This document shows, piece after piece, positions 647-35,825 of a DNA stretch of 38,908 nt (within the stretch, counting starts at the first letter, position 1; each line of letters begins with the position of its first letter). The translations under genes and the position numbers were made by a program. Location of the stretch: IMG/VR virus record IMGVR_UViG_3300005512_000106, positions 1-38,908 of that record. One strand, given 5' to 3'. The DNA comes from a virus (lineage: Duplodnaviria; Caudoviricetes). The notes under the pieces are model-generated. The model was not told the DNA's origin, did no database searches, and saw only the letters and a program-made list of their open reading frames with translations.

Positions 647-686
<40 letters not shown>

Positions 687-695
687 AAATGCTGC

Positions 696-1859
696 TCAGT
701 CCATCGCTTGTGACTGCACTCCATATTCAGGCTTGACTTTGGAGCCGTTTTTGGAGCCGTTTCGTGAAGCATCATGCTCGGTAGTATCCCGTGAGCCACT
801 GCCGTTGTCAACCCCCGCCGCCTGCCTGAATGCCTCAGGCTTGGCCTGGTGGTAGTGTTCCTTGGCGACCTCGGGGCCGTGGCCCATCCACTCGCAGACG
901 GTGAACACGTCGTACTCCCCCAGCCAGTCGGTGTCACAGTTCTTCCGCAGTGTGTGGCACCACTTGGCCCACGGGGTGAGCCCTGCCCTCTTGGCAATGA
1001 CTTGGACGTCCCGCCAGAGGTTCGTACCGACCAGCCCGGCGACAACCTTCTGGCTCGGGCTGTCGGCCATGTACGCCTCGAAGAGCAGATCGTGGAGCTC
1101 GGGGCGGATTGGCACGTTGCGGGCCAGGATGCCCGTGCGTCCCCCCGTCTTGAGGTTCGTCGCTCGCAGTCGGTGCTCGCCCAGGTCCACGTCGGACCAT
1201 GTGAGGGCCAGGGCCTCGCCTTGACGCAGCCCGGCCCAGCGGCACAGGCTCAGCAGCAGACGCCATGCCATGTTCGGGCAGGCATCGAGCAGCTTGGCCA
1301 TCTTGTCGACGTCGATGTACTCCCAGTTCTTGATCGGCCGGGGCGCAGTGGAGGTCAGCTTGCCGAAGGGGTTGAGCGAGACGACATCATCCTCGGCAGC
1401 CTCGTTGAAGATCGCCTTGACGTCACGCACGCAACGGCAGACCGTCGCCTCGGAAAGCTGGCCGTGGTCCCGCTTGTTCAGGTGGGCGAAATCTCCCTTG
1501 GCCAGCATGGTGCGCCAGACACGGGCATCGGCCTTGCTGATGGTGTCCGCTCGCCGGTCGCTGCCGAAGTGACCCGTCAGGTACCGCTCGCTCTGGCGGT
1601 ACCCGGCCACGGTGCCCGCGGAATACTCCGGGTGATTGTCGAGATGTCGCTGGATGAGCTCGCCCAGCGCTGGCGCCCGTGCCGTCACCGATCGGCCGGC
1701 GTTGAGTTGCTCAGCGAGACGGGCAGCCAGCACCGTCGCCGCCCGCTTGCTCACCTTGGCCCTGGCCCCGAGGCTCTTGCTCGCTCGCTTCCCGTCGAGG
1801 TACCACTGAGCCCGCCAGTACTCACCGTTCTTGTGGACTGTGACCCGTATCGCTCTCAT
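696..1859 (-). CDS. int: Tyrosine recombinase / phage integrase
   Basis: Catalytic R (GLRQGE), K (NLKTG), HxxR (HTLR), GH (MGH), Y (KEHY); ATG 1859 with GGAG RBS. Confidence 0.93.
   Translation of the reverse strand: MRAIRVTVHKNGEYWRAQWYLDGKRASKSLGARAKVSKRAATVLAARLAEQLNAGRSVTARAPALGELIQRHLDNHPEYSAGTVAGYRQSERYLTGHFGSDRRADTISKADARVWRTMLAKGDFAHLNKRDHGQLSEATVCRCVRDVKAIFNEAAEDDVVSLNPFGKLTSTAPRPIKNWEYIDVDKMAKLLDACPNMAWRLLLSLCRWAGLRQGEALALTWSDVDLGEHRLRATNLKTGGRTGILARNVPIRPELHDLLFEAYMADSPSQKVVAGLVGTNLWRDVQVIAKRAGLTPWAKWCHTLRKNCDTDWLGEYDVFTVCEWMGHGPEVAKEHYHQAKPEAFRQAAGVDNGSGSRDTTEHDASRNGSKNGSKVKPEYGVQSQAMD
739..758. repeat. Integrase arm-type site pair (right), TTGGAGCC x2, inside the int 3' end
   Basis: TTGGAGCC at 739-746 and 751-758. 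Confidence 0.7.
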
Positions 1860-2220
1860 GGGGATCTCCGGTTTCGTCCAGGTGTTGCAGGGATTGCCAA
1901 ATCGGCGATGCGTCCGGGATGCACTCCTGAGCCCACAGATAACAGTCACGGCAGAGGGCCATCCCGTTGAGCTTCACCGCAGCTTGGGCCTCGCAGCCCA
2001 AGGCGCAGAACTCTCGAGTTCTAGTCGTCGTTACCACATGATCTCGCCTCTTCCGCATGGCGTTGCCAGCGAAGTTGTAGTCGCCCGTCTCGGGGTCCAG
2101 CCGGTACTCGGCAACCAGGAATGGGTTGGTGACCTCTCGCCAAACCTCGGGCTTCTCGTCGGCATCGTCAACCACGAGCCCGTCGCTGGGACCACCGATA
2201 AGTTGAAACCTAGGCAGCAT
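1822..2220 (-). CDS. Hypothetical early protein with Cys cluster
   Basis: Starts LIGGPSDG; has CALGC...CRDC; overlaps its neighbours in the operon. Confidence 0.55.
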   Translation of the reverse strand: MLPRFQLIGGPSDGLVVDDADEKPEVWREVTNPFLVAEYRLDPETGDYNFAGNAMRKRRDHVVTTTRTREFCALGCEAQAAVKLNGMALCRDCYLWAQECIPDASPIWQSLQHLDETGDPHESDTGHSPQER

Positions 2221-5379: not shown

Positions 5380-7068
5380 TCAGTGCCTTATCCATGTCGG
5401 CCCGGCGGTGTTCCCGGCGAACTCGGCGAGCTCACGCTGGAGTTCTTCGTCGGCGTCTCGTTCTCGGCGCCGGTCTGCGGCCTTGGCGGGGTCTTGGTCG
5501 AGGCAGTCCTGGAACTGTAGGGTGACGCCGGCGACGGCCTCGATGCGGTCATCGTGGTCGAGGGAGTTGCGGTCTCGGGTGAGTCTGGTGAGTTGGTAGG
5601 TAAAGGTCGTGTCTGCGGCGACTTCGGGGCTGATTACCATTCGGTGCTGATTGAGGACGGGCTCGAGGATGCCGATGATGCGGAGTTCCTTCTGCCCGGT
5701 AGCGTGGCAGCCTATGGCGTAGCAGCCCCAACCCTCGGGGCAGTCGTCCTCTTGGCCTGGTGCGCAGGCGTACTCGGCGAGGATGGGCTCGATGAGCTTG
5801 ATGAGCATGTCGCCGCCAAAGTTGGTTTCGATGTAAACCTCGGTGCATCGGTGGTTTCTGAGGGCGGCGACGAACTTGTGGAGGTTCTCCGTGGTGGCGC
5901 CGCCGTGCACGCCGTCGACGTGCTTGAGGTACAGGTAGCCGTGGAGTTGGCCCATGATGGCGAGGCTCATCTCGTCGGGTCCGCGGCCGGCGGGGTCGAT
6001 GAAGCCCTTGACGCCTTGGTACTTGACCCATGTGTCGTCGACCATGACGGGGCCGTAGAAGCGGTCGGAGCCGAAGCCGACCGAGGGGATCTCCTCGATG
6101 GCGGTTGACCCGCGGGACGTATGCTTGCCCCAGGCGATCGTCATGGGGGCTTTGTCCCGGTGGGCGGGGTAGACGATAAAGTCCGCCAGCCGCAGGGGGT
6201 AGCGGTGCGTTGTGGCCAGGTCCGACACGAGCATGTACTGCATCAGGAACGTGGACCGGCTGACGGCGAGCGACATGATGTGGTCGCGGGAGAACCGCTC
6301 CGGCCAGACCGGGTCGGTCGGCTTGGCGGCGCCGTCGCGTAGGTCTCGCTGGAGCATCGGGGCGAGTGATGGAACCCGTTGGTCGTGCTCGGGATACTGG
6401 ACCGGCCAGGTGCGGAAGGCGTACTTGTTCGCGGCCAGGTGGTCGTACAGGCTGTCCTCGTGGTGAGGGGTGCCGAGGAAGATGATGTCGCCGCCGGGGA
6501 CGAGGATGAACTCGAACTCCTCGATGCGCTCGCGGAGGACGAGCCGCTGGTCTCGGGACTGCGTGTTCTCCATGGTCTCGACGTCATCGGGGACGATGAG
6601 TGTGGCCCTGACGCCGGGGAGTTGGCCGAGGATGCCCATGGCGGTGATCGAGGGCGTGCGGTCCCAATCCGCCGTACCCACGTCGAGGTTGTCGATGGAG
6701 TCGCGGTCTCGGGTACCAGGCCGCGGGGCCAGGTGCCGCAGGAAGGGGATGTTGGCGAGCCACAAGCGAATCAGGTGCATGGACTTACGGCTGTGGCCTA
6801 CGGACTTGGACACGAGCAGGACGCGCTCGTTGGCGTCGCGATACAGCCGCCAGAGGATGTAGGCGCAGGTTATCCACGTCTTTGAGAGCCCTCGGAAGCC
6901 GCGGATGCCACGCCGCTGCGGGCCGGCCTCGAGCCAGCGGGCGACGTCGTACTGGACGCGCGAGGGCTCAGGGAGTCGCTGGAGCCGCCATATCTCCTTG
7001 AGGAAGAAGGAGAAGGACTGTTCAAGCTGGTCGGTGTACTGCTTGACCAGGGCGGTAGAATCGCTCAT
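5380..7068 (-). CDS. terL: Terminase large subunit (T7 gp19-like)
   Basis: GFRGLSKTWIT Walker A-like, LIVPDDVE Walker B, FIDPAGRGPDE and HDDRIEA nuclease motifs. Confidence 0.95.
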   Translation of the reverse strand: MSDSTALVKQYTDQLEQSFSFFLKEIWRLQRLPEPSRVQYDVARWLEAGPQRRGIRGFRGLSKTWITCAYILWRLYRDANERVLLVSKSVGHSRKSMHLIRLWLANIPFLRHLAPRPGTRDRDSIDNLDVGTADWDRTPSITAMGILGQLPGVRATLIVPDDVETMENTQSRDQRLVLRERIEEFEFILVPGGDIIFLGTPHHEDSLYDHLAANKYAFRTWPVQYPEHDQRVPSLAPMLQRDLRDGAAKPTDPVWPERFSRDHIMSLAVSRSTFLMQYMLVSDLATTHRYPLRLADFIVYPAHRDKAPMTIAWGKHTSRGSTAIEEIPSVGFGSDRFYGPVMVDDTWVKYQGVKGFIDPAGRGPDEMSLAIMGQLHGYLYLKHVDGVHGGATTENLHKFVAALRNHRCTEVYIETNFGGDMLIKLIEPILAEYACAPGQEDDCPEGWGCYAIGCHATGQKELRIIGILEPVLNQHRMVISPEVAADTTFTYQLTRLTRDRNSLDHDDRIEAVAGVTLQFQDCLDQDPAKAADRRRERDADEELQRELAEFAGNTAGPTWIRH

Positions 7069-20957: not shown

Positions 20958-21947
20958 TTACTGGAGCACAAGCTCGCCGCAGGCTTCCTTGCGGAGCCAC
21001 TTGGAGCCCTGCCAGACCTTCGCACCCGTGTACCACCCGTGCTTCGTGTCCTGCCACGCGGGAGCAATGGCGCGAACGCCGCCCATGGCGGTGAGTTGGC
21101 CGACAGCTTCGGCGTCGCCGATGAACTGCGCGGCCACCTTGCTGAAATCGGCCCGGTACTGGCTGGGCAGCGCCGTGTTGGCCGAGTCGTCGGCGCTGGG
21201 CAGGTTGTTCGTCTTCTCGATGACGAAGCCCTCGCACTCGACCATCCTGCGAGAGATCAGGTCGTTGACGCCCTGGTAGTCCCGGCTCAGCAGCGTCTTA
21301 TCACAGAGCAGGACGCGGGTGAGGTACGGGCTCAGGAACGCAACCCGGTTGGCGTCAGAGATGTGACGCTCATCGAACTCCTGAGCCATCTCGGCGAACA
21401 CCGTCTGGAGCTTGATCGAGCCGGTGAGGGTCGCCGGGTAGGCCGCGGTGATGGCCCCGGCATCGGCAGCCGTGATGACGTGGCCACCGATGAACAGGTC
21501 TGCCCCGGAGCCGGCATCGGCCACGCGAGCGCCGATGGAGATCATCCGGGAGAGTCGCTGGTCAACCTGATCGGCACACGCCAAGCCGTGCTGATTGGCG
21601 TAGGTCTGGCGGGAACTGATGTGGTTGACGAAATCGTCAGCCTCATCGAGGAACTCGTCACTGATAAGCTGGTAGTCGTCCAGCGTGATGAGCCTTTCCT
21701 CGTTCTGGGGCTGGTTGCTGCCGACGCGATCGACGCCGGGGACGAGGTTCTCGGCCTCGGCCCGAGCGATCGCCGGGAACTGCTTGCTGCGCCCGTTGGT
21801 GATCGGCATCGACATGACGTGACGGGCGAACACGAGGAACTTCTCGTAAGCCGCCAGCACCATGCCGGAATACTGAGTGAGGGCCAGGGCGACGGTATCG
21901 CCCGTGCCGTACTCTTGCAGCGTTCGGTGGACAACCATGTTTGGCAT
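20958..21947 (-). CDS. Major capsid protein (T7 gp10-like)
   Basis: ITNGRSKQFP, ERLITLDD, GFVIEKTNNLP motifs; AAGGAG RBS before ATG 21947. Confidence 0.93.
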   Translation of the reverse strand: MPNMVVHRTLQEYGTGDTVALALTQYSGMVLAAYEKFLVFARHVMSMPITNGRSKQFPAIARAEAENLVPGVDRVGSNQPQNEERLITLDDYQLISDEFLDEADDFVNHISSRQTYANQHGLACADQVDQRLSRMISIGARVADAGSGADLFIGGHVITAADAGAITAAYPATLTGSIKLQTVFAEMAQEFDERHISDANRVAFLSPYLTRVLLCDKTLLSRDYQGVNDLISRRMVECEGFVIEKTNNLPSADDSANTALPSQYRADFSKVAAQFIGDAEAVGQLTAMGGVRAIAPAWQDTKHGWYTGAKVWQGSKWLRKEACGELVLQ

Positions 21948-22182
21948 GGGAATGCTCCTTGGGTGTGAGTAGCAAAGACCTTGGGGAATCGAGGGGTTCG
22001 GTCTGCTCACGCCCAGGAGTTATCGGGGGGCCGGCCGGGGGCCGCGGTGCGCGGATTGTCCGGTGAGGCGTCCGGGCTGCTGATGCGGGGGAAGGACCGG
22101 GAGCAGGTGAGGCGTAGCCTCGGAAGGTCGTTTCTCACCTACCCCCTGGAACCGACTGGTGCCGGATACTCGTGAGGGGGTG

Positions 22183-22962: not shown

Positions 22963-22999
22963 GGTTCGGTTCCTTTCGAGGGCGGTCTATCGTGGGCCT

Positions 23000-23818: not shown

Positions 23819-23840
23819 GGTTCGGTTCCTTTCGTGCGGC

Positions 23841-25367
23841 CTACGCCGCGCTGTTCTCGGCGATCGCTCCGATGCTCTTGATCGCCTGCTCACTGGCAGC
23901 CGTGTCGAGACCGGCCTGCCGCTGCTTCTCCAACTCGGCTTCGAGTTCTTCCGGCGTCTTGATGAGTTCCGGCGTATTGATCCCCAAGAGGCGCAGGATG
24001 CGGTCGGCGAGAAGCTCGAACTTGATACGCTGCATCGCTCCGGGGATCGGGCCGAGAACCTGCATAGCAAGCAGCAGCCGGTCCAGTTCCGCTTGCCGAC
24101 GAAGGGCCTCGATGCCGGTGAGGATGGACAGTTCGTGGGCCTTGGCGTTGGCGGGCAGCGGCACGAGCAGCTTGTCGCGCTCCATCTGCCAGATAACTCG
24201 ATTGAGGAAGGGCTTTTGTATCTCCTCGGCGATGTGCGTGTAGACACCCCCCAAGGCGCCCTCGAGTTCCCGTGCGATCCGCATGATCTGGGCGGCGGTG
24301 ACTCGCTCGCCCGTTGGCTGGGCCGAGGATTCAAGCAGCATCGCCTTGGCCAGTCGCTTCTCGATCATCTGCGAGTAGGTCATGGCGACGGAAATGTCGT
24401 TGTGCTTGTTGGACTGGAGGAAGCCGATGCCGTTGGGGGTGCTGCCGTCAACCCGCCCGGCGCGAGGCTGGCCGTTCGGAGAGGTCAAGTCCGCCGTCGT
24501 CCAGCCCTTTGCGGGGTCATAGACGGGGACGAGCCGGGCCGCGGCGATGGTGAGGTCCAGAATCGCACCGGCCAGACCATTGAAGCTCCGCAGGTCGCCG
24601 AGGCGGGCCTCTACAAAGCCGCGGGAGTAGTCCTCCCCGGCCAGCTCCCGATAGCCCACGGAGAAGAAGGGGCTCACCGGCTCCTCGGACGTCTTGACCT
24701 GGTGCTCGTTGATCTCCTGCGTGATGACCCAGCTACCCCCCCGCTGCCACTCGGCCTTCGTGTAGAGGCTCTGAATGCGATCGGCCGGCTCGCCGGCCAT
24801 GAGCTTCTCCCGGTCGAGGGCTGCCGCTGCGATGGTCTCATCCGGCAGGCTCGTGACGTCAACCTGCTCGGAGGCGATCACCCAGGACAGCCGCCCCCCG
24901 GCACGCCGCTGGACGTACTGATCGAAGCGGAAGGTCTTGAGCATGTAGTCGCGGGTCAGGAAGGCCAGGGAGTTGCCGGCCACCATGACGTTCTCGAGGA
25001 CTGCTCGCTGGGCGATGCGGTAGTTCGTGTCGTCAAGCTTAGACTCGATCAGCAGGTCGCGGGCGAGGAGCGTGGCCTTGAACGCCTCCATGTCCTCCGG
25101 GCTGAGGTCGCTCGTGCGGGCCTGAGCCGAGGGAACCGTCGACCACCAGGGCGTCCCGGTCGGGAACAGTGAGCCGACCAGCTTGCCGACAAGGTTCTCG
25201 ATCCCGCTCGACCCGAGCGATTGGTAGGGCTGCAAGATCGTGTCCGTGCCCTTGGTGTTCTCCTCCGGCAAGACCCACGGAATCGTGAAGGCGGCGCACT
25301 CGCGGACCCTCTCGGTGACGTTGGCCCGCTTGGCGTCCTGGGCCTCGAATTCGGCCTTGAGGGTCAC
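23841..25367 (-). CDS. Portal / head-to-tail connector (T7 gp8-like)
   Basis: PYQSLGSSGIENLVGKL...LFP, GEDYSRGFVE, ERVTAAQI motifs. Confidence 0.95.
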   Translation of the reverse strand: MTLKAEFEAQDAKRANVTERVRECAAFTIPWVLPEENTKGTDTILQPYQSLGSSGIENLVGKLVGSLFPTGTPWWSTVPSAQARTSDLSPEDMEAFKATLLARDLLIESKLDDTNYRIAQRAVLENVMVAGNSLAFLTRDYMLKTFRFDQYVQRRAGGRLSWVIASEQVDVTSLPDETIAAAALDREKLMAGEPADRIQSLYTKAEWQRGGSWVITQEINEHQVKTSEEPVSPFFSVGYRELAGEDYSRGFVEARLGDLRSFNGLAGAILDLTIAAARLVPVYDPAKGWTTADLTSPNGQPRAGRVDGSTPNGIGFLQSNKHNDISVAMTYSQMIEKRLAKAMLLESSAQPTGERVTAAQIMRIARELEGALGGVYTHIAEEIQKPFLNRVIWQMERDKLLVPLPANAKAHELSILTGIEALRRQAELDRLLLAMQVLGPIPGAMQRIKFELLADRILRLLGINTPELIKTPEELEAELEKQRQAGLDTAASEQAIKSIGAIAENSAA

Positions 25368-25582
25368 GCCGGCCCGCCGATCCGCAGTCCGCCGGTCGGC
25401 GCCGCTGCGACGCCCGGATTGGACATAGGCTTGATGACGAGCGATTGCCGCCCTGCCCGCTGAGCCTCGAGGCTCTTGCGTTGCCGGGCGAGTTCCTCTT
25501 CGGCCTCCTCGTCGATCGGGTCAACTTCGGGCGGAGGAGGGGGTGGCTTTGGGACGCTTGGACTTCCGCCGCTGAATCCCAT
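25364..25582 (-). CDS. Small virion assembly protein (T7 gp7.3-like position)
   Basis: MG...PSVPKPPPPP...GRQSLVI...GGLRI; directly upstream of the portal gene. Confidence 0.7.
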   Translation of the reverse strand: MGFSGGSPSVPKPPPPPPEVDPIDEEAEEELARQRKSLEAQRAGRQSLVIKPMSNPGVAAAPTGGLRIGGPA

Positions 25583-25586
25583 GGGC

Positions 25587-25733
25587 TTACTTCTCCGTGA
25601 TGGTCAGGTGGAAGATCGGCTGCGCGATGTCGGCCTTGACGGAGCGGTTGGCCCCGTCCTTCTCGATCGCCACGACGCAGCCGGCGGTGAACATCGCCAG
25701 CAACAGCGCAGCAGCAAGCAGTAGCGACTTCAT
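25587..25733 (-). CDS. 48-aa lipoprotein (absent from the ORF track)
   Basis: MKSLLLAAALLLAMFTAG|CVVAIEKDG...; lipobox TAGC; AAGGAG RBS. Confidence 0.7.
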   Translation of the reverse strand: MKSLLLAAALLLAMFTAGCVVAIEKDGANRSVKADIAQPIFHLTITEK

Positions 25734-25745
25734 AGGGTGTTCTCC

Positions 25746-25952
25746 TTACTTGACGCGGTAGATGCCCACGAGCACGTCGACGAGCTCGCGCTTGCCGATG
25801 TCCGAGGCCCGGTGCAGGCGGGTGAACTCCTCGGCCATGTCCGCCACCGTGACGTCGGCGGTGACGTGCTCATCCAGCCACTTCACCAGCGACAAGGCGT
25901 CTTGCGGAATCTCGGAACCGTCGGGCATCTGCGGCGTCTGAGGCTCTGACAT
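25746..25952 (-). CDS. Small conserved pre-portal protein
   Basis: LVKWLDEH...GKRELVDVL; typical podovirus position. Confidence 0.65.
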   Translation of the reverse strand: MSEPQTPQMPDGSEIPQDALSLVKWLDEHVTADVTVADMAEEFTRLHRASDIGKRELVDVLVGIYRVK

Positions 25953-26487
25953 GGGGGTATCCTTGATCCGTCAGCCAGTCGTGCAGTTGGACGGGGGTGT
26001 AGATGCGCTCGGGGACGTCCACGCCGCCGGCCATCAGGCAGGCCAGCGTGATGCAGAGGCAATCCTCAGTCCACGGCGCAACACCGCGGCGAAGCCAGCG
26101 GTAGAACGTGGGCCAATGCCGCTTCGGCTGGCCGACGCCGTAGCCGAAGAACTCGAGATCAATGGCATGAGTGAAGGGCACGAGGAAGGCCGAATGCAGC
26201 GTGGGGTATCTGTCGAGAAACATCTCCAAGGGCCAGTAGACGTTGCCCTCGAAGGTAGGGTCTAACACGCTCGCGCCGCCGAATCCAACCGTGCAGTGAG
26301 CAATATCCGAGTGAGTCAGTACCCGGATCAGGCGGGAAAGGAACCTGTAGTACCACCGGCCGGCTTCGACGCGAGCGGTCGCAAAGAACACAGCGCCAGC
26401 GTAATCAGTCCATAGGTCGGCCCTTTCGCGTAAGTGAGTGCTGCGGCGCGGGTTACTCGTCTGTCTACGCATAGCATCATGGGTCAC
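25870..26487 (-). CDS. Permuted papain-like (NlpC/P60, YiiX/YebB-type) hydrolase candidate
   Basis: SRLIRVLTHSDIAHC (His first), later EDCLC (Cys) and IYTPVQL; GTGA overlap with the RNAP stop. Start uncertain. Confidence 0.55.
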   Translation of the reverse strand: MTHDAMRRQTSNPRRSTHLRERADLWTDYAGAVFFATARVEAGRWYYRFLSRLIRVLTHSDIAHCTVGFGGASVLDPTFEGNVYWPLEMFLDRYPTLHSAFLVPFTHAIDLEFFGYGVGQPKRHWPTFYRWLRRGVAPWTEDCLCITLACLMAGGVDVPERIYTPVQLHDWLTDQGYPHVRASDAADARRFRDSARRLVAGEVAG

Positions 26488-28868
26488 GAGAAGAAGTAAC
26501 GGCTGGCCATGACGGCTCTTAGGTCCAGATTCCCAACCTGGGGCGGTTCAGGGAAACTTATGTCGGGGTATTCAGCTATAAGTTCGTCGAATAACCGAAG
26601 GTGGGCCGGCTCCTCGTGCAGGAGCACGAATTGCTCGCGTAGGATCTCGTTCATGCGGCCCACGTCGGCGGCGTGCGTCCAGTAGGAATCATGCACGCCG
26701 GCGAAGCGGAGCCCCTCGTCACGGCAGGCGATGGCGGTGCACATCATGTGCGAGGCGTCCATGGCGTGTACCCAGTTCGGAGCGAAGCCGTTGACCTGGC
26801 GTTGCGGGCTGATGGGGCACTTCTCGTCTCGCTCGTTGAAGTGAATGGATTGCAGCATGGTGACGACCGCCTTGACGCGAGCCCGGCGGTAGGGTTGTTC
26901 GACCACAACGCCCAAGGGCGTCGTCCACCGGATCGGCTGCCCCGTGCGAGCGATCAGCTTCCCGCAGCACGCCAGCCAATCCATCGCCGCATGAGCAGCA
27001 ACGCAGACGATCTTGTTGGCCGCGAGGCACTTGTTGGCGAGGTACCGGCTGGCGGCGTAGAGATCATCTTGGTCGAAGCCGGCGTCTTTCAGGTGGGCGT
27101 ACACCTGGCGGCGAGCCCCAACCTTCGTTACTCCGTACACGGAGGTCATCACGGTTTGCTTGACGATCTTCCGGTCAATCCAGCCGGTCAGCAGCTTCGC
27201 CTCAGGGATGCCGTCCGCCGCTTCCTGCTCGACGATGGCAGCGACTTGGGCGGCGACCTTGGCGTACACATCCTGCGGGGCATCGGCAGGCAGGAGGTTC
27301 ACCATTCGCCCCGTCTGCTCGCAGCGGAGCATCGCCCCGTAGTGCTGGAGGGCGTTGTTGCTCCCGTCCAGTTGAACGGGCAGGTGCGTAGCGGCCTCCG
27401 GGTTGTTCAGGGCGATCGCGGCGGCGAGCGCCTGCCACGGCTTGTCGAGTTCCATCCAGCCGGTGTTGTCGAGGGGGGCAGTGGCCCAGCCCTTGATCGC
27501 CGGCAAGCTCGACGTTGCCCAGGCTATGCGGTCATCGAAGCTGGCCTTGTCAACGCCGCAGCAGTTGGCCATGTGCACAAGGAGCCATTGCCGGCCCTCG
27601 GCTGCCATGGGCCGGGCCTCGGCGAACTCCAGCAGGCCCCGGCAGATGTCATCCCCTTGGTGGTGCAGGAACAGGGGGATCGGGTACGCCCGCGTGCGGA
27701 AATCCAGTTGATGCGGAAAGTAGATCGCCGGTCGGTCAGCAAATCGCTCGGCGACGTCGAGCTTGAGCTTGAACACGATCCGCTCAGCCTGTTCCTGGGC
27801 GTTGCGGCGGCGGATCCCCGCGGCCTCCCGCTTCCACAGCTTCTTCGCCGCCTCGTTCTCGTTCCAGTCGGCAGGGAGGGGGGGCATCGGCAGGTTGCCG
27901 GCACGGGGCAGGCCCGCACACGCGCCGCCGGACGCCCACAGCGCCTGCACGATTGGCAGCACTGCCCGGTTGATCCGCCACGGAGTAGCACTGAGTGCGT
28001 TGACGGCTTCCCGGATGGTCTCGGTGTCGGCCTTGACCTTGGAGCGGTCGGCCTTCTTGACCAACTCGGTCGGGAGCTCGAGATACCCGCCCCGCTCCTG
28101 ATCCGTCCAGGACATCGGCGGCACGAGCATCGGCTGGTACCGAGGTCGTAGGTGTTCCCGGACGGAGTGGCCATCCTCGATCAGTTGCACGGCCCGGCGA
28201 GTCAGGCGGGTGACGTTGACGATCCGGACCCCTCGGCGCCGAGTGAATATCTCAAAGGCCGGATCCCGCGGCTGGTCGAAGTCCGCTATCGTGGCGACCT
28301 TGATGAGTAGCTCGAGCAGCTTGGCCCCGACGTGGCATTGATTCCGCAGGCTCCACTTCTCGCCGATCCGGAACTTGTTGGCGATGCGGTTGACGTGCGT
28401 TGCCTTGATCTTCTTTCGGTCGGTATGCAGCAGGGCGCTCCACGCCTCGTCGTTCTCCTTGCGGAGCTTGTCGTAGTTGATCTCGGCGTTGACCGAACGG
28501 CCGATGGCCAGGGAGAGCGTCGCCACCTTCACCCCGGTCGGCTCGGAGAGGCACTTGCCGAGGGCCTCGTGCATAGCGGCGACGGCCAGGGTCGCCGAAT
28601 CAAGCTGCTGGAGGAGGGGGCCGTAGACCCTGCGCCCCTTGCTCGGCCGGCGTGCGGTGATTGCCGCCTTCTCGGCCGCGATGACGGACGAATACACGCG
28701 GAACCAATGGACGAGCAGGCGTTCGACGGGCTTGAGGGCGGCGCCGTCCCCGCGGTCCACCGCCTCGGCGACCAGACGGCGGTACCGGGCAACCCCCCGG
28801 CTGTGTGCTTCACGCTCGCAGTCGAGCTCATCGGAGTACGCGGACCCGTCGAGCAGATGCTCCACCAT
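26484..28868 (-). CDS. Single-subunit DNA-directed RNA polymerase (T7/mitochondrial family)
   Basis: Motif A LPVQLDGSNNALQHY, motif B RKIVKQTVMTSVYG, motif C FAGVHDSYWTH, C-terminal YFFS; AAGGA RBS before ATG 28868. Confidence 0.97.
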   Translation of the reverse strand: MVEHLLDGSAYSDELDCEREAHSRGVARYRRLVAEAVDRGDGAALKPVERLLVHWFRVYSSVIAAEKAAITARRPSKGRRVYGPLLQQLDSATLAVAAMHEALGKCLSEPTGVKVATLSLAIGRSVNAEINYDKLRKENDEAWSALLHTDRKKIKATHVNRIANKFRIGEKWSLRNQCHVGAKLLELLIKVATIADFDQPRDPAFEIFTRRRGVRIVNVTRLTRRAVQLIEDGHSVREHLRPRYQPMLVPPMSWTDQERGGYLELPTELVKKADRSKVKADTETIREAVNALSATPWRINRAVLPIVQALWASGGACAGLPRAGNLPMPPLPADWNENEAAKKLWKREAAGIRRRNAQEQAERIVFKLKLDVAERFADRPAIYFPHQLDFRTRAYPIPLFLHHQGDDICRGLLEFAEARPMAAEGRQWLLVHMANCCGVDKASFDDRIAWATSSLPAIKGWATAPLDNTGWMELDKPWQALAAAIALNNPEAATHLPVQLDGSNNALQHYGAMLRCEQTGRMVNLLPADAPQDVYAKVAAQVAAIVEQEAADGIPEAKLLTGWIDRKIVKQTVMTSVYGVTKVGARRQVYAHLKDAGFDQDDLYAASRYLANKCLAANKIVCVAAHAAMDWLACCGKLIARTGQPIRWTTPLGVVVEQPYRRARVKAVVTMLQSIHFNERDEKCPISPQRQVNGFAPNWVHAMDASHMMCTAIACRDEGLRFAGVHDSYWTHAADVGRMNEILREQFVLLHEEPAHLRLFDELIAEYPDISFPEPPQVGNLDLRAVMASRYFFS

Positions 28869-28987
28869 TGTTCTCGTCCTTGAGATAGGTGTGGGGCCGG
28901 CGGACTCGTACCCGTCAGGGCCGATTCGGGGAATGATCGAGCGGAGTGTGGTTTTCCCGCCCCGCATCCGCCGACCCGGAGAAAGGC

Positions 28988-29224
28988 TTAGTCGAGGTTC
29001 GCGCTGCCGACCCAGAGGCCCTCGGCGAGCGTCACGCGCCGATCGCTCTTGACCTTCTTGCCGTCCGCCGTCTCGACGTAGACATAGGCGCGGACATCCT
29101 CGGCCAGTTGCACCGGCTCAGTGTGCGGCACCAGCACGACGCGCGGATTCTCTCTCGCGCACCCACTCAGCAAAGCGCCGACCACGATCAGTCCGACGAG
29201 CACTCTCAGCATTGACGGGCGCAT
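28988..29224 (-). CDS. Lipoprotein, o-spanin candidate
   Basis: Signal peptide with lipobox LSGC; overlaps the upstream gene in another frame (Rz/Rz1-like). Start uncertain. Confidence 0.6.
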   Translation of the reverse strand: MRPSMLRVLVGLIVVGALLSGCARENPRVVLVPHTEPVQLAEDVRAYVYVETADGKKVKSDRRVTLAEGLWVGSANLD

Positions 29225-29300
29225 GGAGTTTCTCCCAGATGAAGGGAAGAACGGCAGCGAGGATCGACTTGAGGATTGGCAGCAGGATCGCCAGCATCAC
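29118..29300 (-). CDS. Small membrane-anchored protein, i-spanin candidate
   Basis: Hydrophobic N-terminus then a basic tail; lies between the holin and lipoprotein genes. Confidence 0.5.
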   Translation of the reverse strand: MMLAILLPILKSILAAVLPFIWEKLHAPVNAESARRTDRGRRFAEWVRERESARRAGAAH

Positions 29301-29512
29301 AGCAGCTTCTTGACGCCGGCCCTGGATGCGGAGTAGCCCATCGTGGCCAGCACCGCCATTGCGCCGCCGACGATCTTGCCGACCATGCTATCGCCGGTGA
29401 AGATGCCGCTGGCCATGAGGATGCCGAAGATGGTGGCGACCGTGCTCAGCCAGAACTCGGTGGTCTTGACGCCTGCCTTGGGGGTCGGGGTGATCTCTGA
29501 GGGTTCGGTCAT
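29297..29512 (-). CDS. Holin (2 TM)
   Basis: KAGVKTTEFWLS, two hydrophobic helices, basic C-terminus; GGAG RBS. Confidence 0.7.
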   Translation of the reverse strand: MTEPSEITPTPKAGVKTTEFWLSTVATIFGILMASGIFTGDSMVGKIVGGAMAVLATMGYSASRAGVKKLL

Positions 29513-29592
29513 GGGTTGGCTCCAGACTCGGGACGACAGGGAAGCCTACCACCGGGAGCGATGGTGATGCCAGAAAACTCTTGGTTTTTTCC

Positions 29593-29652
29593 TTGACGGT
29601 CGGGGCATGGGGGCGATATTCCCTTGACCTGTGGATTTCAGTATACGACAAT
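29593..29652 (+). promoter_or_regulatory. Tandem sigma70-type promoters at the divergence point
   Basis: TTGACG-16-GATATT (29593-29620) and TTGACC-17-GACAAT (29624-29652). Confidence 0.6.
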
Positions 29653-29723
29653 TCGATGCCTTCACGGCGGCCGGTTCTGCCTACCATGTGTACTGCAGTC
29701 CACAGCCGGCCGCCTCAATCACC

Positions 29724-29762
29724 AAAGCCCGTGCCCCCTTCGGAGGGACGCGGGCTTTCTTT
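29724..29762 (+). terminator. Intrinsic terminator, possibly bidirectional
   Basis: AAAGCCCG...TTCG...CGGGCTTT followed by CTTT. Confidence 0.7.
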
Positions 29763-30046
29763 GCGCCTATCGTAGCGAGGGCCGCTTCGGGTGTCGTTCA
29801 CCGGCCCGCATCCAAAGAACGACACGGAACCGCCGGAACTCACCCCACCGGCACGCGCCCCCGGTTTCAAGCCACCAACACCAAAGACCGCGCTGTCCCA
29901 CCCCCGACAACGGTCGACCTCGGGACTGGCTGAGCTTTCAAGGGCGTCGCTCGCTGTTCAGGAAGCAGCAGGATCGAAGCTCAGGGCGATACCCCGAGGG
30001 AGATAGGGGGGTTGTGCCCAGTGGCTCTTACGAAAGGGACCGAGCG

Positions 30047-30490
30047 ATGACAAAAGCGACCATGCACTTCGATGGCGGAGCCCGTCCGCAGTCAGGGCTG
30101 GCCGGGTTCGGGTTCGTGCTGCGAGTGAACGACGACGACCAACTCGGCCTTCTGGAGGGCAACGCCGTCCTCAACAGGACGTGCAACGAGGCTGAGTACA
30201 TGGGGTGTATCGCCGGGCTGGCGGCTGCGTTGTCGGCCGGTGTGACCACCTTGCGGGTCTACGGAGACTCCAAACTGGTTATCAATCAGGTCGCGGGGCG
30301 CTGGAAGCTCAAGGCAGACAACCTTCGGCCCCTGTACCGGATCGCCCGCCGGCTCGCGGCCTCCTTCCGACGGGCGACGTTCAAGCATATCCCCAGGGAC
30401 AACAACGGCGAGGCTGACGGGTTGGTCAACGATGCGATGGACAGCCTGGAGCGGGAGCTAGAAAATAAATATGCGAAAAGCTCAAGATAG
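30047..30490 (+). CDS. rnhA: Ribonuclease HI family protein
   Basis: HFDGGAR, TCNEAEY, VYGDSKLVINQV, HIPRDNNGEAD: complete D-E-D-D set. Confidence 0.92.
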   Translation: MTKATMHFDGGARPQSGLAGFGFVLRVNDDDQLGLLEGNAVLNRTCNEAEYMGCIAGLAAALSAGVTTLRVYGDSKLVINQVAGRWKLKADNLRPLYRIARRLAASFRRATFKHIPRDNNGEADGLVNDAMDSLERELENKYAKSSR

Positions 30491-30493
30491 TTC

Positions 30494-30521
30494 TTGTCCC
30501 GTGCCGAAACCGTGCTATACT
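30494..30521 (+). promoter_or_regulatory. Sigma70-type promoter with extended -10; predicts a leaderless mRNA
   Basis: TTGTCC-16-(TGc)TATACT; ATG lies 7 nt downstream with no RBS. Confidence 0.65.
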
Positions 30522-30528
30522 TCCAATC

Positions 30529-30681
30529 ATGCGTATCGTGATAAACGACACTGATCTGGTGAAGCGAATCAAGGTGGAGCAGCAACGTCGGGGCGACGGG
30601 ACGGCCGCGGCCACGGCGAAGAAGCTCCTCGAACAGCGACTCGCTCAACTCGACCTCGAACCCACGGCCGTCCGCGAATAG
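30529..30681 (+). CDS. 50-aa ribbon-helix-helix (Arc/CopG-like) regulator (absent from the ORF track)
   Basis: MRIVIN-DTDLVKRIKVEQQRRG-DGTAAATAKKLLEQRL: strand-helix-Gly turn-helix. Confidence 0.6.
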   Translation: MRIVINDTDLVKRIKVEQQRRGDGTAAATAKKLLEQRLAQLDLEPTAVRE

Positions 30682-30691
30682 GACATCTCTC

Positions 30692-30829
30692 ATGGAATCA
30701 GCAGGCGCAACAGTGGCTCTCATCGTCGCGGTGGCCTTCGTCGCCGCGTTCCTGGCGGTCCTGATCTGGGTGGACGACTACAAGGACGAGGCGATGGACG
30801 CAGGCGTCCATCTGGGCCGCCTTGCTTGA
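30692..30829 (+). CDS. 45-aa single-TM protein (absent from the ORF track)
   Basis: ATVALIVAVAFVAAFLAVLIWV; AGGA upstream. Confidence 0.5.
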   Translation: MESAGATVALIVAVAFVAAFLAVLIWVDDYKDEAMDAGVHLGRLA

Positions 30830-31035
30830 GCATGTGTCCAAGTCCCCGGCGCGTGTCCGGGGCACGGCGAGCGGTTGGCTTGCTCGGGACTTAGCCGCTC
30901 GCCCCTTTGCGAATGCCTGTGGGTTTCGGTTCATCCCTCCGGGGCTCGCAGTCAAGGCGGCGACGGGTCGGCAGTGTACTCCCCCCTGCACTGGCCGGCC
31001 CCGAGCCGCCACCATCCCGAGGAAGGAACCGAACG

Positions 31036-31413: not shown

Positions 31414-31425
31414 CAAGCCTACGAC

Positions 31426-31557
31426 GGCGAGCGGCAGGCAGGCCACGGTGGTTTGCCAAGGGTGGCCCGACAACTTCATAATCCAGAACCCGCAAACGGT
31501 GTGAATGGGACTGGAAAGGACGCCCGGCCCCGGATGGGCCTGACGGGGCTGCTCGCC
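31426..31557 (+). ncRNA. Candidate multi-branch structured RNA
   Basis: 10-bp closing stem GGCGAGCGGC / GCTGCTCGCC (one G-U) enclosing internal hairpins such as GGCCAC/GTGGCC. Confidence 0.35.
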
Positions 31558-31561
31558 ACGC

Positions 31562-31641: not shown

Positions 31642-31677
31642 TTGTGAACCGGAAACCCAGCACCAAAGGACAGAACA

Positions 31678-32961
31678 ATGGGCACGAAGATCGTCAAACT
31701 GGAAGCGGAGAACGTCAAGCGGCTTGTCGCCGTCAACATCGAGCCGAGCGGAGCGATGGTCGTCATCGGCGGGCAGAATGGGGCGGGTAAGTCATCCGTT
31801 CTGGACGCCATTGAGTACGCCTTGGCCGGCGGGAGGTCGCTGCCCGACGTGCCGGTGAGGCAAGGCGAGGATGCCGCCCGTGTTTTGGTGGAACTCGATG
31901 ATTTGGTCGTGACCAAGACCATCGGCAGCGCCGGCCGGACCTCGTTGGTCGTGGCCAACAAGGAAGGGGCAGCATTCCCCAGCCCGCAGGCCATGCTCGA
32001 CAAGCTTGTGGGTCCACTGAGCTTCGATCCCCTCTCGTTCCTGCGCATGCCCCCGGCAAACCAGCGGGCGACGCTCCAGGAACTCATCGGCCTGAACTTC
32101 GATGAGCAGAACGGCAAGCGAGCGACGCTCTACCAGAAGCGCACAGCGGTCGGCCGCGGAGTGCGGGATCTCAAGGGCCAGGTCAAGGCCATGCCGTTCC
32201 ATGCCGACGCCCCGGCCGAGGAAGTCAGCGTTGCGGACCTGTCCCGCGATCTCCGAGAGGCCCAGGGAATCAACAAGGCGGCATTCGAGGCGCAGGGGGC
32301 GGCGACTCGTGCCGAACAGGATGTGGCGGCATCCTCGAGGGCAGTAGCGACAGCACAGCAGGCCGTGGTCGATGCGCAGACCCGGCTGGAGTCGGCGATT
32401 GCCGCCCGCGACGAGATCGACGCGGAAGCCAAGAGGCTGCGAGAGGCGGCGGACAAGGCCCCGACCGTGGAGTGTGACCCGCTCCATGAACGCATCACCG
32501 CAGCCGAGGGCATCAACCAGAAGGTCCGCGAGAACGCCGCTGTCGCCAACACGAAGAAGCGACTGGTGGAGGCAGAGAAGGAGCAAGCCGAGCTCAGTAA
32601 CGCGATTGCCAAGATCGACGGGGGCAAGGCGAAGGCCCTGGCGAAAGCGGAGTTCCCGGTCGAGGGCCTCGAGTTCGACGACGAGGGCGTCACGTTCGGT
32701 GGCCTGCCCTTGGGCCAGGCGTCACAGGCAGAGCAATTGCGGGTGTCCGTGGCGATGGGCCTGGCTCTCAACCCGGACCTCAAGGTGCTGTTGATCCGTG
32801 ACGGCAGCCTGTTGGACGAGGCCAATCTGGCCCTGCTGCGGGATATGGCGACGGAGGCCGGCGCGCAGGTCTGGATCGAGCGAGTCGGCGAGGACAAGGA
32901 CTGCACCGTCATCATCGAGGACGGGCAGGTGAAAGGACACGAGGCCGATGCCACAGAATGA
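31678..32961 (+). CDS. SMC/Rad50-like AAA ATPase with coiled coil
   Basis: Walker A GGQNGAGKSS, long coiled coil, degenerate signature ASQAE, C-terminal LLIRDGSLLDE. Confidence 0.88.
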   Translation: MGTKIVKLEAENVKRLVAVNIEPSGAMVVIGGQNGAGKSSVLDAIEYALAGGRSLPDVPVRQGEDAARVLVELDDLVVTKTIGSAGRTSLVVANKEGAAFPSPQAMLDKLVGPLSFDPLSFLRMPPANQRATLQELIGLNFDEQNGKRATLYQKRTAVGRGVRDLKGQVKAMPFHADAPAEEVSVADLSRDLREAQGINKAAFEAQGAATRAEQDVAASSRAVATAQQAVVDAQTRLESAIAARDEIDAEAKRLREAADKAPTVECDPLHERITAAEGINQKVRENAAVANTKKRLVEAEKEQAELSNAIAKIDGGKAKALAKAEFPVEGLEFDDEGVTFGGLPLGQASQAEQLRVSVAMGLALNPDLKVLLIRDGSLLDEANLALLRDMATEAGAQVWIERVGEDKDCTVIIEDGQVKGHEADATE

Positions 32962-33880
32962 CACGCCAGCCGAGGTTGTGATCGCCAAAGTGCCCGCCCC
33001 GGAGCCGGGGGTCTACCCCGGAGTACCGTTCGAGACCTACGCCTCGTGGGACGCCGCCAACGCCTCACTGCTCAAGGCTCTGGACCACACCCCGGCCCTG
33101 GCCCTGCACCGACTCACGCACATCGAGGACGACAAGCCGCACTACGCCCTCGGCCGGCTGTTCCATCTGCTCGCGACTCAGCCTGAGTTGGCCGACGGGG
33201 AGTTCGTCGAGAAGCCGGCGACCTACGTAAACGACAAGGGCGAGGAAAAGCCTTGGCACGGCGGGGCGAAGGCGTGCAAGGCCCAGATGGCCCTGTGGCT
33301 GAGCGAGGGGCTGACGCCCGTGAGCGCTGACGACATGAACCAGGCCCTTGCGATGGCCGACAGCGTGCGGACGCACGAGAAGCTCGGGCCGCTGATGGAC
33401 GGCGCCGACGTGGAACTCTCGCTGGTCTGGGTGGACACGACCACGGGCGTCACCTGCAAGGCCCGGCTCGACGTGGCCAAGACAGCCGCCGGCGTGATCG
33501 GGGAACTCAAGAGCGCCCGGTCGGCCAAGGCGGACGACTTCTTCAACGTCGCCTACCGGCTGGGCTATCACATTGCCACGGCCATGTACGTCGATGCGGC
33601 GATCGCCCTGGGGTTGACGCCGGAGGACGTGCCGACGTGGTACGTCTTTGCCGTGGTGGAGAAGTTCCCCCCCTACCTGGCCCGGGCCTTCGATGTCCAC
33701 GACGACCCCGAGGCCCTGTCCTTCGCCTTCCTCGACCTCGGGCGCAAGGTCTACAAGACGAAGCTCGCCGAGTACGCCTTCTGCCGCAAGCACAACAAGT
33801 GGCCGGGCTACCCGACCGAGCACGCCGACATGATGCTGCCGCCGTGGGTCAAGGACGCCGAAGCCTTCGAGATGCGATAG
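32948..33880 (+). CDS. PD-(D/E)XK exonuclease, RecE/exonuclease VIII-like
   Basis: ELSLVW...CKARLD...GELKS, GYHI..AMY, FAVVEKFPPY, WPGYP motifs. Confidence 0.88.
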   Translation: MPQNDTPAEVVIAKVPAPEPGVYPGVPFETYASWDAANASLLKALDHTPALALHRLTHIEDDKPHYALGRLFHLLATQPELADGEFVEKPATYVNDKGEEKPWHGGAKACKAQMALWLSEGLTPVSADDMNQALAMADSVRTHEKLGPLMDGADVELSLVWVDTTTGVTCKARLDVAKTAAGVIGELKSARSAKADDFFNVAYRLGYHIATAMYVDAAIALGLTPEDVPTWYVFAVVEKFPPYLARAFDVHDDPEALSFAFLDLGRKVYKTKLAEYAFCRKHNKWPGYPTEHADMMLPPWVKDAEAFEMR

Positions 33881-33887
33881 GAGAATC

Positions 33888-34856
33888 ATGGCTGAGAGCG
33901 CAATACAAAAAGTCGACGTGAACGCACCACTCAGGCACCCCCGGAACTGCGTGCATTTCATGGCTGATATTGAGGCGGGCACGTCGCTTGTCCGGGCATG
34001 GCCGGGCGACCTGGACAAAGATCGACGGGTCCACAAGACCAAGCAACTGCTCGAGCAGGCAGCGATCACCATAGCGACCAGCGGCAGCGCCATGCAGAAG
34101 CTCCAGCAGTGCGTGACCCTGAGCGTGATCGACAGCCTTGTGGCCTGCGCGAGCATGGACCTGTCGATCAACAAGGCGATGGGTGAGGCGTACCTCGTCC
34201 CCTACGGGAACATCTGCACCCTCATGGTGGGGTACAGGGGCTTCATCAAGCTCATGGTCAACGCAGGCTTCGTGACTCGGGTGGAGAGCGTCCTGGTCTA
34301 CGAGGGCGAGCCCTTCAAGTGGTGGCGGGACGAGACGGGGCCGCACCTGATGCATGAGCCCGATGCCGCCAGCCAGGGCAAGGTCGAGCTCGTGACCGCC
34401 GCCTACGCCATGGGGTACACCCGTGACGGCGCACCAATGATCGAAGTGATGAACGCCGAGCAGTTGGCCGCAGTGCAGAAGGCGTCCAAAGGGGCGGGTG
34501 GACCGGCCTACCGGGACTGGCCGACGGAGATGATGCGGAAGGCCCCCGTGCGTCGCCTCCAGAAGTACATCCCCAAGACGGCCGACAACCTCGCCTACGA
34601 CCTGCTCGTCCGGGCCTGTGAGCACGATAACCAGCAGTACGACCTCAGCCCCGATTCCACCTACGGCAAGGCGGCTCAGGCGTACAAGGACAAGCAGCAG
34701 GCGAAGCTCTCGGATGATTGGCAGAGCCGGGTCACGGGCGAGCCGGCGAAGGCCGAGGCCCCCGAGCCTGCCCCCGAGAAGAAGCCTGAGTACACAGAGG
34801 ATGGACACCTGATCCCCGATGATGTCGGGAAGCCCAAGGACGGCGATGATGGATAG
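33888..34856 (+). CDS. recT: RecT-family single-strand annealing protein
   Basis: GEAYLVPY, LMVGYRGFIKL, VYEGE.F, EMMRKAPVRRLQKYIP motifs. Confidence 0.9.
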   Translation: MAESAIQKVDVNAPLRHPRNCVHFMADIEAGTSLVRAWPGDLDKDRRVHKTKQLLEQAAITIATSGSAMQKLQQCVTLSVIDSLVACASMDLSINKAMGEAYLVPYGNICTLMVGYRGFIKLMVNAGFVTRVESVLVYEGEPFKWWRDETGPHLMHEPDAASQGKVELVTAAYAMGYTRDGAPMIEVMNAEQLAAVQKASKGAGGPAYRDWPTEMMRKAPVRRLQKYIPKTADNLAYDLLVRACEHDNQQYDLSPDSTYGKAAQAYKDKQQAKLSDDWQSRVTGEPAKAEAPEPAPEKKPEYTEDGHLIPDDVGKPKDGDDG

Positions 34857-35322
34857 CATCCAATTCTTCGTGCCCGGTGAGCCCAAGACGGCCGGCAGCA
34901 AGCGGGCATTCGTGAACCCCAAGACCGGCAAGCCCATCCTCACGGACGCCTGCAAGAAGTCGAAGCCGTGGAAGGCTGACGTCAAGCACTTCGCCTTCCA
35001 GGCGTTCCAAGGCGAGCCGCTGGAAGGGCCGTTGTACCTGCGGCTGACGTTCTACATGCCTCGCCCTAAGAGCCACTACCGCAGCGGCAAGCACAGCGAC
35101 GAGCTGAAGCCCGACGCCCCCTCGTTCCCGGACAAGCGGCCCGACGTGGACAAGCTCTCTCGTGCGGTGATGGACGCCCTGACTGGGGTACTCTGGAATG
35201 ACGACTCGCAGGTAGTCACCAAGCTCGCCTGCAAGCGGTACGGCGGACGGCCCGGCGTCGATGTGGTCTGCGAGTGGCAAGACGAGTGCGAGTCGGCGGA
35301 TGGTCGGGAGATACAACCATGA
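34846..35322 (+). CDS. rusA: RusA-family Holliday junction resolvase
   Basis: PGEPKTAGSKR, RPDVDKLSRAVMDALTG..WNDDSQV. Confidence 0.92.
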   Translation: MMDSIQFFVPGEPKTAGSKRAFVNPKTGKPILTDACKKSKPWKADVKHFAFQAFQGEPLEGPLYLRLTFYMPRPKSHYRSGKHSDELKPDAPSFPDKRPDVDKLSRAVMDALTGVLWNDDSQVVTKLACKRYGGRPGVDVVCEWQDECESADGREIQP

Positions 35323-35825
35323 CCCTGCCGGCGATAAAGGTCCAGTGCCGAGAGGTCGATACGCATGGCGTCTGCCGGCTGCGGATCTGGAGCTCGGAGT
35401 ACATCGACGTGGCCAAGGTCTGTCACGCCTTCGGGCTCACGCCCGAGCAACTGTTTGCACGGGTCCGTAACCGGCCCCTGCCCACGCTGTTCGACCTGCC
35501 CGGCGGCGAACCCCCCGACGCCGACACCCCCTTCGAGCGGTTCTGGCGGGCATGGCCTAGCCACAAGCGGAAGGGCGCCAAGCCCTATTGCCAGAGGATA
35601 TGGAATCGCAAGAGCCTCGACAGCGTGGCCGACACAGTGCTTGCCGCCCTGGAGGCGTTCAAGAAGCTCGACGACTGGCAGTCGGGGAAGTTCGTGCCCA
35701 TGCCTTCAACATGGCTGACTCAGGACCGATGGGACTGTGACCTTGCGGACCTCCAGCGCGCCCCGGCTGCCGAGTCCGTCGCCGAGAGGCTCCAGCGGAT
35801 CGGAGGCAACGATGCTCAAGGTTGA
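35319..35825 (+). CDS. Replication initiator-like protein (C-terminal domain type)
   Basis: FERFWRAWP..RK.AK...W...FVPMPSTWLTQDRW, typical of temperate-phage initiator C-termini. Confidence 0.65.
   Translation: MTLPAIKVQCREVDTHGVCRLRIWSSEYIDVAKVCHAFGLTPEQLFARVRNRPLPTLFDLPGGEPPDADTPFERFWRAWPSHKRKGAKPYCQRIWNRKSLDSVADTVLAALEAFKKLDDWQSGKFVPMPSTWLTQDRWDCDLADLQRAPAAESVAERLQRIGGNDAQG

Follow-up and report, generated by a model that had tools for sequence, protein, structure and literature searches.

That a cryptic prophage was the donor of the mitochondrial RNA polymerase (RNAP) is an existing idea, and in phiKMV-like phages the RNAP gene lies directly before the virion genes. Mitochondrial RNAPs carry a lever loop, a hairpin which, according to PMC10600007, gives support to Mtf1/TFB2M during initiation and, in the elongating enzyme, contacts the upstream DNA. 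The preprint bioRxiv 10.1101/2025.04.03.647028, from which the lever-loop definition used here is taken, describes this loop as absent from phage polymerases, and reports that the N-terminal domain refolds on promoter escape in T7 but not in the human mitochondrial RNAP. The window considered here, i.e. the whole stretch of DNA that was analysed, is a virus record of 38,908 bases (IMG/VR IMGVR_UViG_3300005512_000106; 92% complete by CheckV) and carries an intact frame of 794 amino acids (aa) at 26484-28868 on the minus strand, the gene of a T7-type RNAP. This RNAP belongs to a family, represented here by 99 non-redundant uncultured sequences, which can with good confidence be regarded as the closest relative that the organellar polymerases have in this sampling and as a new clade of a known kind of enzyme. 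No description of the family was found in the literature searched, mostly sources outside subscription journals, and a T7-to-mitochondrial RNAP timetree (Figure S2 of PMC10386132) may bear on its novelty. The features of the RNAP are as follows.

26484..28868, minus strand: single-subunit T7-type RNA polymerase, 794 aa (profiles, structure matches, trees)
28260..28292, minus strand: lever-loop equivalent, residues 193-203, ahead of the intercalating hairpin (counterpart of human POLRMT 588-604 in the alignment)
27690..27704, minus strand: DxxGR motif, reading DFRTR, residues 389-393 (translation, alignment)
27135..27161, minus strand: motif B, KQTVMTSVY, K570-Y578, eukaryote-like (K and Y in 99/99 family rows)
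26673..26693, minus strand: motif C, HDSYWTH, residues 726-732, with catalytic D727 (alignment)

The start codon at 28868 is preferred to an in-frame ATG further upstream (28967, giving 827 aa) because AAGGA lies directly ahead of it and because the resulting length agrees with a 794-aa database protein and with relatives of ~790-820 aa. Both Pfam domains, RNA_pol (PF00940, 412 bits) and RPOL_N (PF14700, 123 bits), score above cut-off and PHROG 414 reaches 660 bits, while among solved structures yeast Rpo41 (388 bits) and human POLRMT (368 bits) are matched better than T7 RNAP (278-280 bits). The initial annotation, made from the sequence alone, had placed the enzyme nearer to mitochondrial than to T7 RNAPs, with which these scores and the trees below agree; all the motifs it quoted occur in the translation of 26484-28868, and the contrasting T7 motif, RSVTKRSVMTLAYG, is confirmed in the T7 record. 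The AlphaFold model (pLDDT 93.4) has the right-hand Pol A fold with an N-terminal domain (Z 43.7 to T7 RNAP), and an N-terminal extension of organellar type is lacking, residue 8 pairing with residue 410 of Rpo41. The same gene is present in a second assembly of this phage; no sequencing runs containing it were listed. D501, K570, Y578, D727 and R393 (motifs A, B, C and DxxGR) are invariant in all 99 family rows, which suggests, at the level of sequence, that the enzyme is likely to be catalytically active. The DFRTR spelling of DxxGR, singled out by the initial annotation, is real but is ordinary variation within the family (DFRGR in 52/99, DFRSR in 11/99 and DFRTR in 8/99 rows): the glycine position varies there, although DFRGR is found in 62/62 eukaryotic rows, and the last arginine is unchanged in 309/309 rows. 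Likewise, the specificity loop that had been called short is shorter, but modestly so, with mostly 37 residues in the family and the eukaryotes against 39-40 in other phages. W730 of motif C has a frequency of 0.89 in the family, 0.98 in eukaryotes and 0.00 in other phages.

A protein search over 5.8 billion sequences, in which 7,995 candidates were scored, gave 1,172 matches. Among the best 120 of these 1,172, which were listed, ranks 2-62 are occupied by proteins of 790-870 aa at 39-61% identity and the first named eukaryote, the protist Gefionella okellyi, stands at rank 63 (41% identity over 99% of the query), the rest being family members or eukaryotic enzymes as judged by name or tree. 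The closest among 2,735 matching cultured-phage records reaches 33% identity (384 bits). For the trees, rows were taken from protein and locus searches (best 80 per locus scan), ten cultured phages, N4-like phages, a sample of 401 genomes and mitochondrial plasmid enzymes. Rows below 740 aa were removed except for two outgroups, and removal of near-duplicates reduced 363 rows to 309, from which the subsets used in IQ-TREE (103, 108 and 62 rows) were hand-picked for spread. Eukaryotic rows labelled fungal or animal are presumably so, by motifs which we take to mark these groups.

The family and the nuclear-encoded organellar RNAPs form a single branch in all trees built but one. In the FastTree analysis (309 rows, 742 columns) the 99 family and 62 eukaryotic rows are united at 1.0 against 148 others, and the same grouping receives 99.9 by the Shimodaira-Hasegawa-like approximate likelihood ratio test (SH-aLRT) under LG+F+G4 (103 rows), and 99.7 and 99.5 in 108-row trees of the core alone and of the N-terminal domain alone. 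Under the site-heterogeneous model used, C10 on 62 rows (posterior mean site frequency, PMSF; LG+C10+F+G4), the eukaryotes obtain 100/100, the family 78.5/96 and the two together 100/100. The grouping is also retained with plasmid RNAPs added (99.5), after SR4 recoding (99.5/86 and 97.2/97), after removal of the fastest 30% of sites (100) and with six N4-like catalytic subunits added on 362 columns (98.3), where the N4 clade falls among other phages. As the initial annotation anticipated, the phage RNAP and its roughly 100 uncultured relatives thus group with the eukaryotic clade without falling inside it. A search from the eukaryotic side, with the Gefionella enzyme as query against 1.84 billion representatives and without a word index, had 140 eukaryote-like proteins among its top 150, the other 10 being family members and none coming from other phages, each match being classed by its best BLAST group, and diagnostic residues are shared by family and eukaryotes at 13 positions, by family and others at four and by eukaryotes and others at two. 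The high score of the phage RNAP against one eukaryotic profile, A2, was discounted as circular, because that profile had been built from eukaryotes chosen by their likeness to the phage RNAP.

Approximately unbiased (AU) tests reject as sister of the eukaryotes the three alphaproteobacterial prophage enzymes (p 2e-5), the T7/SP6 group (p 3e-6), a Naomviridae enzyme (p 0.011) and the mitochondrial plasmid clade (p 0.0006). The alphaproteobacterial and T7/SP6 trees came from fast constrained searches, with deficits of 420 and 372 log units; fast and full searches differ by roughly 50 log units, far below these deficits. The present protein taken alone is rejected as well (p 2e-8): it sits deep inside the family and is no closer to eukaryotes than its relatives are. 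The proposal of the initial annotation, that this phage belongs to a lineage near the donor, accordingly holds for the whole family and not for this protein singly. Thirteen of 38 plasmid-type matches were added to the tree, ten of which make one plasmid clade among other phages.

The sampling also brought up enzymes outside the family. Two genes of linear-plasmid type (L367 and L368), one of them interrupted by a stop, lie on AT-rich DNA in a 167-kb IMG/VR record that is likely to be fungal mitochondrial sequence filed as virus. An 893-aa RNAP (P0141) falls inside the eukaryotic clade; its Logan contig is of phage size (44.7 kb) and may be either compact eukaryotic DNA or a virus with a eukaryotic gene. 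Four divergent T7-type RNAPs of 895-930 aa from Planctomycetota (L338-L341; G120:C12, G210:C1, G176:C1 and G140:C1) fall among the 'other' RNAPs; they carry a cysteine-rich insert before the specificity loop, three lie on the largest contig of their genome, and they may be domesticated genes.

The second line of evidence is the lever loop, for which human POLRMT numbering was obtained by shifting chain numbers by 39. The segment G181-M247 reaches at least 62 residues in 97/99 family and 61/62 eukaryotic rows, against 11/148 other rows. In the phage RNAP the loop is shorter than in most eukaryotic enzymes and appears in the AlphaFold model as a short bridged loop. As read from the alignments, the insertion in the family contradicts the published absence of the loop from phage polymerases. 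It may first have held upstream DNA in elongation, and would later have been reused in mitochondria as the docking site of Mtf1/TFB2M.

The RNAP gene precedes the virion operon, which suggests that its product is a polymerase for late genes that comes on once the host polymerase has transcribed. After induction or infection, the host polymerase would produce early-arm transcripts and the initial RNAP mRNA, upon which the phage RNAP would transcribe the virion operon directly downstream, in a phiKMV-like layout. Six sigma-70-like sites were observed in 25300-31700 against 0.7 expected, five of them on the plus (early) strand. The phage RNAP probably initiates alone, as T7 RNAP does, because no Mtf1/TFB2M-like gene was found: RrnaAD/Mtf1-like matches were absent from 48 open reading frames (ORFs) of the phage record and from 74 upstream ORFs of 16 family loci. 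The AlphaFold model superimposes on T7 elongation complexes with a root-mean-square deviation (rmsd) of 3.0 A over 750 residues, against 11.5-15.5 A for whole mitochondrial enzymes (one row at 2.5 A over 542 residues only) and 14.7 for the T7 promoter complex, while the Gefionella enzyme, modelled as a control, shows the reverse (yeast initiation complexes 5.7-10.8, T7 elongation complexes 12.8-15.2). [quoted passage not shown] The enzyme could instead already be mitochondria-like, with an N-terminal domain that does not refold and a helper needed to melt the promoter, as would fit the presence of the loop that docks Mtf1/TFB2M, the ESM Atlas model, which matches a plant RpoT cluster (TM 0.91 over 783 residues), and the lack of T7-style repeated promoters among the 20 largest repeat families. 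The predicted conformation therefore depends on the predictor; given the AlphaFold comparison with its control and the lack of a helper gene in the ORFs scanned, we regard the mitochondria-like alternative as possible but rather doubtful. A repeat tried as promoter, D14, turned out to be a ribosome-binding signature.

The family is likely to be a surviving lineage, sister or parental, of the phage from which the mitochondrial/plastid RNAP was acquired. As to its hosts, the best 80 of 172 genome loci include seven family members, five of which are in Planctomycetota. One prophage is whole (G001:C5, 174845-215617): it lies in a Phycisphaeraceae contig between the housekeeping genes hisS/ffh/valS and queA/tatC/truB (40/61 ORFs scanned), shows the same virion gene order and is bounded by a 44-bp attachment (att) repeat from tRNA-Pro, a repeat at tRNA-Glu having been considered and not found. 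Matches occur in 13 of 401 Planctomycetota genomes, four at family level (434-641 bits; two already known), and in four of 401 Alphaproteobacteria genomes (best 377 bits), none of which is at family level as judged by score. A class-level search around G001 gave no further family member (any match in 8/401 genomes). The exact 40-base att pattern of the window was absent from 301 Planctomycetota genomes and, with 3 mismatches, from five other genomes; after this null result a 37-base core with at most 2 mismatches was searched, and found in 12/151 Planctomycetota versus 0/151 genomes of Pseudomonadota, the one control phylum, all four of the matches inspected being tRNA-Gly(ccc). The hosts of the family are thus likely to be mainly Planctomycetota, and the present hosts need not be the ancient one. 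The fullest form of the proposal is that an undescribed, widespread and temperate T7-like lineage, mostly of Planctomycetota and not of Alphaproteobacteria, was the source of the mitochondrial RNAP, and that its enzymes are working intermediates which have the lever loop, yet initiate alone and refold like T7 RNAP; this we put forward tentatively, at slightly less than an even chance.

Several points weigh against this interpretation. Most rows were found through their similarity to either this protein or the eukaryotic RNAPs, and the trees are without yeast and human sequences, most eukaryotic rows carrying no names. Two of the seven family loci are found on short contigs (17 and 32 kb) whose bins are Mycobacterium and Limnocylindrales, and only the G001:C5 member is shown integrated. 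A lever-like stretch is also seen in an SP6-like phage (L166) and in a divergent Planctomycetota enzyme (L342), and a phage promoter motif was not found in 16 upstream regions, where the best common 14-mer scored 3 versus 3-4 in shuffles. In the trees, the monophyly of the family is weaker (78.5/96 under PMSF, and 0.0 in another tree). The AU test keeps a union of eukaryotes with this phage's half of the family (p 0.259; 0.015 in a fast constrained version) or with P0052 (p 0.399), and with the six N4-like subunits, on the 362 C-terminal columns, the family becomes paraphyletic, without support, with this phage's subgroup nearest to the eukaryotes (26). It also keeps N4 gp16 (RNAPII) as sister of the eukaryotes (p 0.277, and 0.087 with the six N4-like subunits), and removal of the fastest 50% of sites lets the lone N4 gp16 join the eukaryote and family side.

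The unstable monophyly would be explained if the eukaryotic enzymes arose inside the family, a sub-branch being the donor, and not as its sister, which would alter the topology but leave the main message intact. This is unlikely in our view, as the family is monophyletic at 0.98 in FastTree (309 rows), 99.8 under LG+F+G4 (103 rows), 93.9 and 98.5 in the two 108-row trees, 91.7 with plasmids added and 98/85 and 95.3/95 after SR4 recoding, besides the PMSF value above, and since a shortening at W471-P497 is confined to the family and not found in eukaryotes (median 26 versus 33 and 31). The behaviour of N4 gp16, together with the fact that archaeal T7-type RNAPs fell outside the tree sampling, could mean that the family is an early, slow-evolving phage branch drawn to the eukaryotes by rooting or short-branch attraction, the true sister being N4-like RNAPII or an unsampled group. 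This is quite improbable: the N4 clade, once represented by six N4-like subunits, lies among other phages and plasmids, the structural match gives N4 gp16 17% identity versus 32-38% for mitochondrial enzymes, the top 150 of the index-free search from the eukaryotic side contain no third group, and the common insertion and the 13 diagnostic residues are independent of the tree model.

A sister or parent relationship of the whole family to the organellar enzymes is therefore preferred, and the genome around the RNAP gene bears on the direction of transfer. Its features are the following.

25870..26487, minus strand: conserved gene immediately following the RNAP; its product is likely an amidase of permuted papain-like type (C92-like; fold lead, under the naming bar)
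23841..25367, minus strand: portal (head-tail connector; profiles, portal tree)
20958..22010, minus strand: major capsid protein, T7 gp10-like (profiles)
16798-17643, minus strand: tail tube, T7 gp11-like (profiles)
14003-16795, minus strand: tail nozzle, T7 gp12-like (profiles)
13489-14001, minus strand: internal virion protein, gp14-like (profiles)
10931-13489, minus strand: internal virion protein region, 852-aa ORF without assignment (position)
7602-10934, minus strand: internal virion protein, gp16-like (profiles)
5380..7068, minus strand: large terminase, T7-type (profiles)
696..1949, minus strand: tyrosine integrase (profiles)
650..686, minus strand: likely att core, 5' half of tRNA-Gly(CCC), 10 bases past the integrase stop (sequence)
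28988..29512, minus strand: ORFs upstream of the RNAP for small membrane and lipoprotein-like products, putative holin/spanin (sequence only)
31678..35825, plus strand: early arm with AAA ATPase, exonuclease VIII-like protein, RecT, RusA and replication initiator (profiles)

The profile scans covered 48 ORFs selected from 242. On the minus strand, the RNAP and the amidase-like gene are followed by the portal, scaffold and capsid genes, then by those of the tail tube, the nozzle and the ejection proteins, and finally by terminase and integrase, so that a single-subunit RNAP is accompanied by a T7-like podovirus head, tail and ejection module. Together with the integrase and the tRNA-Gly att core, this indicates that the window is likely the genome of a temperate T7-like podophage. 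The holin/spanin candidates gave no family match in the profile scans, and neither DNA polymerase A nor a T7 gp4 primase-helicase was found among the 48 ORFs of this 92%-complete record; by a crude regular expression on partial flanks, a PolA-type HDE motif occurs in 1/26 family loci versus 36/148 others. The amidase-like gene lies within the fetched flanks of 25/26 family loci and 0/148 other loci, and marks the family. The order RNAP-amidase-portal-scaffold-capsid is kept in family loci from independent assemblies, and in the portal tree this phage and 25 family portals split from 23 others at 0.99. Gene order, amidase marker and portal tree thus argue for a coherent phage lineage and against misassembly or a recent swap. 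Reverse transfer, in which an ancestor of the family phages acquired its RNAP gene from a eukaryotic donor, or a chimeric contig, is very improbable: the direction of transfer is unreadable from an unrooted tree alone and Planctomycetota are found in close association with algae and protists, but the eukaryotes form a clade that leaves the family outside (100/100), the members (~790-870 aa) lack the eukaryotic N-terminal extension, the gene order recurs in independent contigs, the portal tree is concordant and the second assembly carries the same gene, so that neither the nesting inside eukaryotes nor the misassembly considered by the initial annotation was seen; reverse transfer is largely refuted for any sampled eukaryote lineage, leaving a transfer before the last eukaryotic common ancestor.

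Replication modules vary widely across the family (RecT/RusA or superfamily 2 (SF2) helicase/DnaB-type). The idea that Twinkle or Pol gamma had been donated together with the RNAP was dropped, as no DNA polymerase A was present among the ORFs scanned (74/151 upstream ORFs). A 611-aa zinc-ribbon primase-helicase in the Phycisphaeraceae prophage (L084, 6323-8158, plus strand) had no solved-structure match at E 0.001. The control region of the window, 29550-30530, is divergent, with the early arm on the plus and the lysis-RNAP-virion arm on the minus strand, whereas in the G001 prophage both arms share one strand. An RNase H-like ORF lies at 29624-30490 (plus strand) and an array of 18-base tandem repeats at 38339-38785, within an ORF at 38340-38783 (plus strand). 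A 22-base translation-start signature is repeated at 5300-5321, 22957-22978 and 23813-23834, ahead of several late genes, and also occurs before 19895.

The family provides a concrete nearest relative of the mitochondrial RNAP, with ~100 sequences. The sampled alphaproteobacterial prophages are disfavoured as donors by the AU test and by the lack of family-level matches in 401 genomes, which indicates a separate source. Through its expressible proteins of 800 aa, the family opens to experiment how a self-sufficient phage enzyme turned into a factor-dependent organellar one, and it adds newly to the single-subunit polymerases on which in vitro transcription can draw.

Compared with known systems, the two-subunit and very divergent N4 RNAPII (Schitoviridae gp15/gp16) and the mitochondrial linear-plasmid RNAPs (e.g. 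RPOP_AGABT of Agaricus bitorquis), which form their own clade among other phages, belong to the same superfamily. The RNAPs of T7 (gp1) and other Autographivirales, including SP6-like and phiKMV-like phages and alphaproteobacterial prophages, have the same fold and catalytic residues; terminase, portal, capsid, tail and ejection proteins are as in T7 phages, and the RNAP gene leads straight into the virion genes, a layout shared with phiKMV-like phages. Unlike these, the present enzyme is at most 33% identical to cultured relatives, forms a separate branch and carries the lever insertion, in phages where no DNA polymerase A and no repeated promoter were found and replication is of RecT/RusA or SF2 helicase/DnaB type. 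It differs from the organellar RNAPs (Rpo41, POLRMT and RpoT; PF00940 plus PF14700) in being a phage gene in a virion operon, without N-terminal extension, targeting peptide or a detected Mtf1/TFB2M-like partner gene, in the variable glycine of DxxGR and in an AlphaFold model that resembles T7 in elongation. Yet the organellar enzymes constitute its nearest branch, with up to 41% full-length identity, and share with it the lever loop and the KQTVMTSVYGV, QPYR and HDSYWTH signatures.

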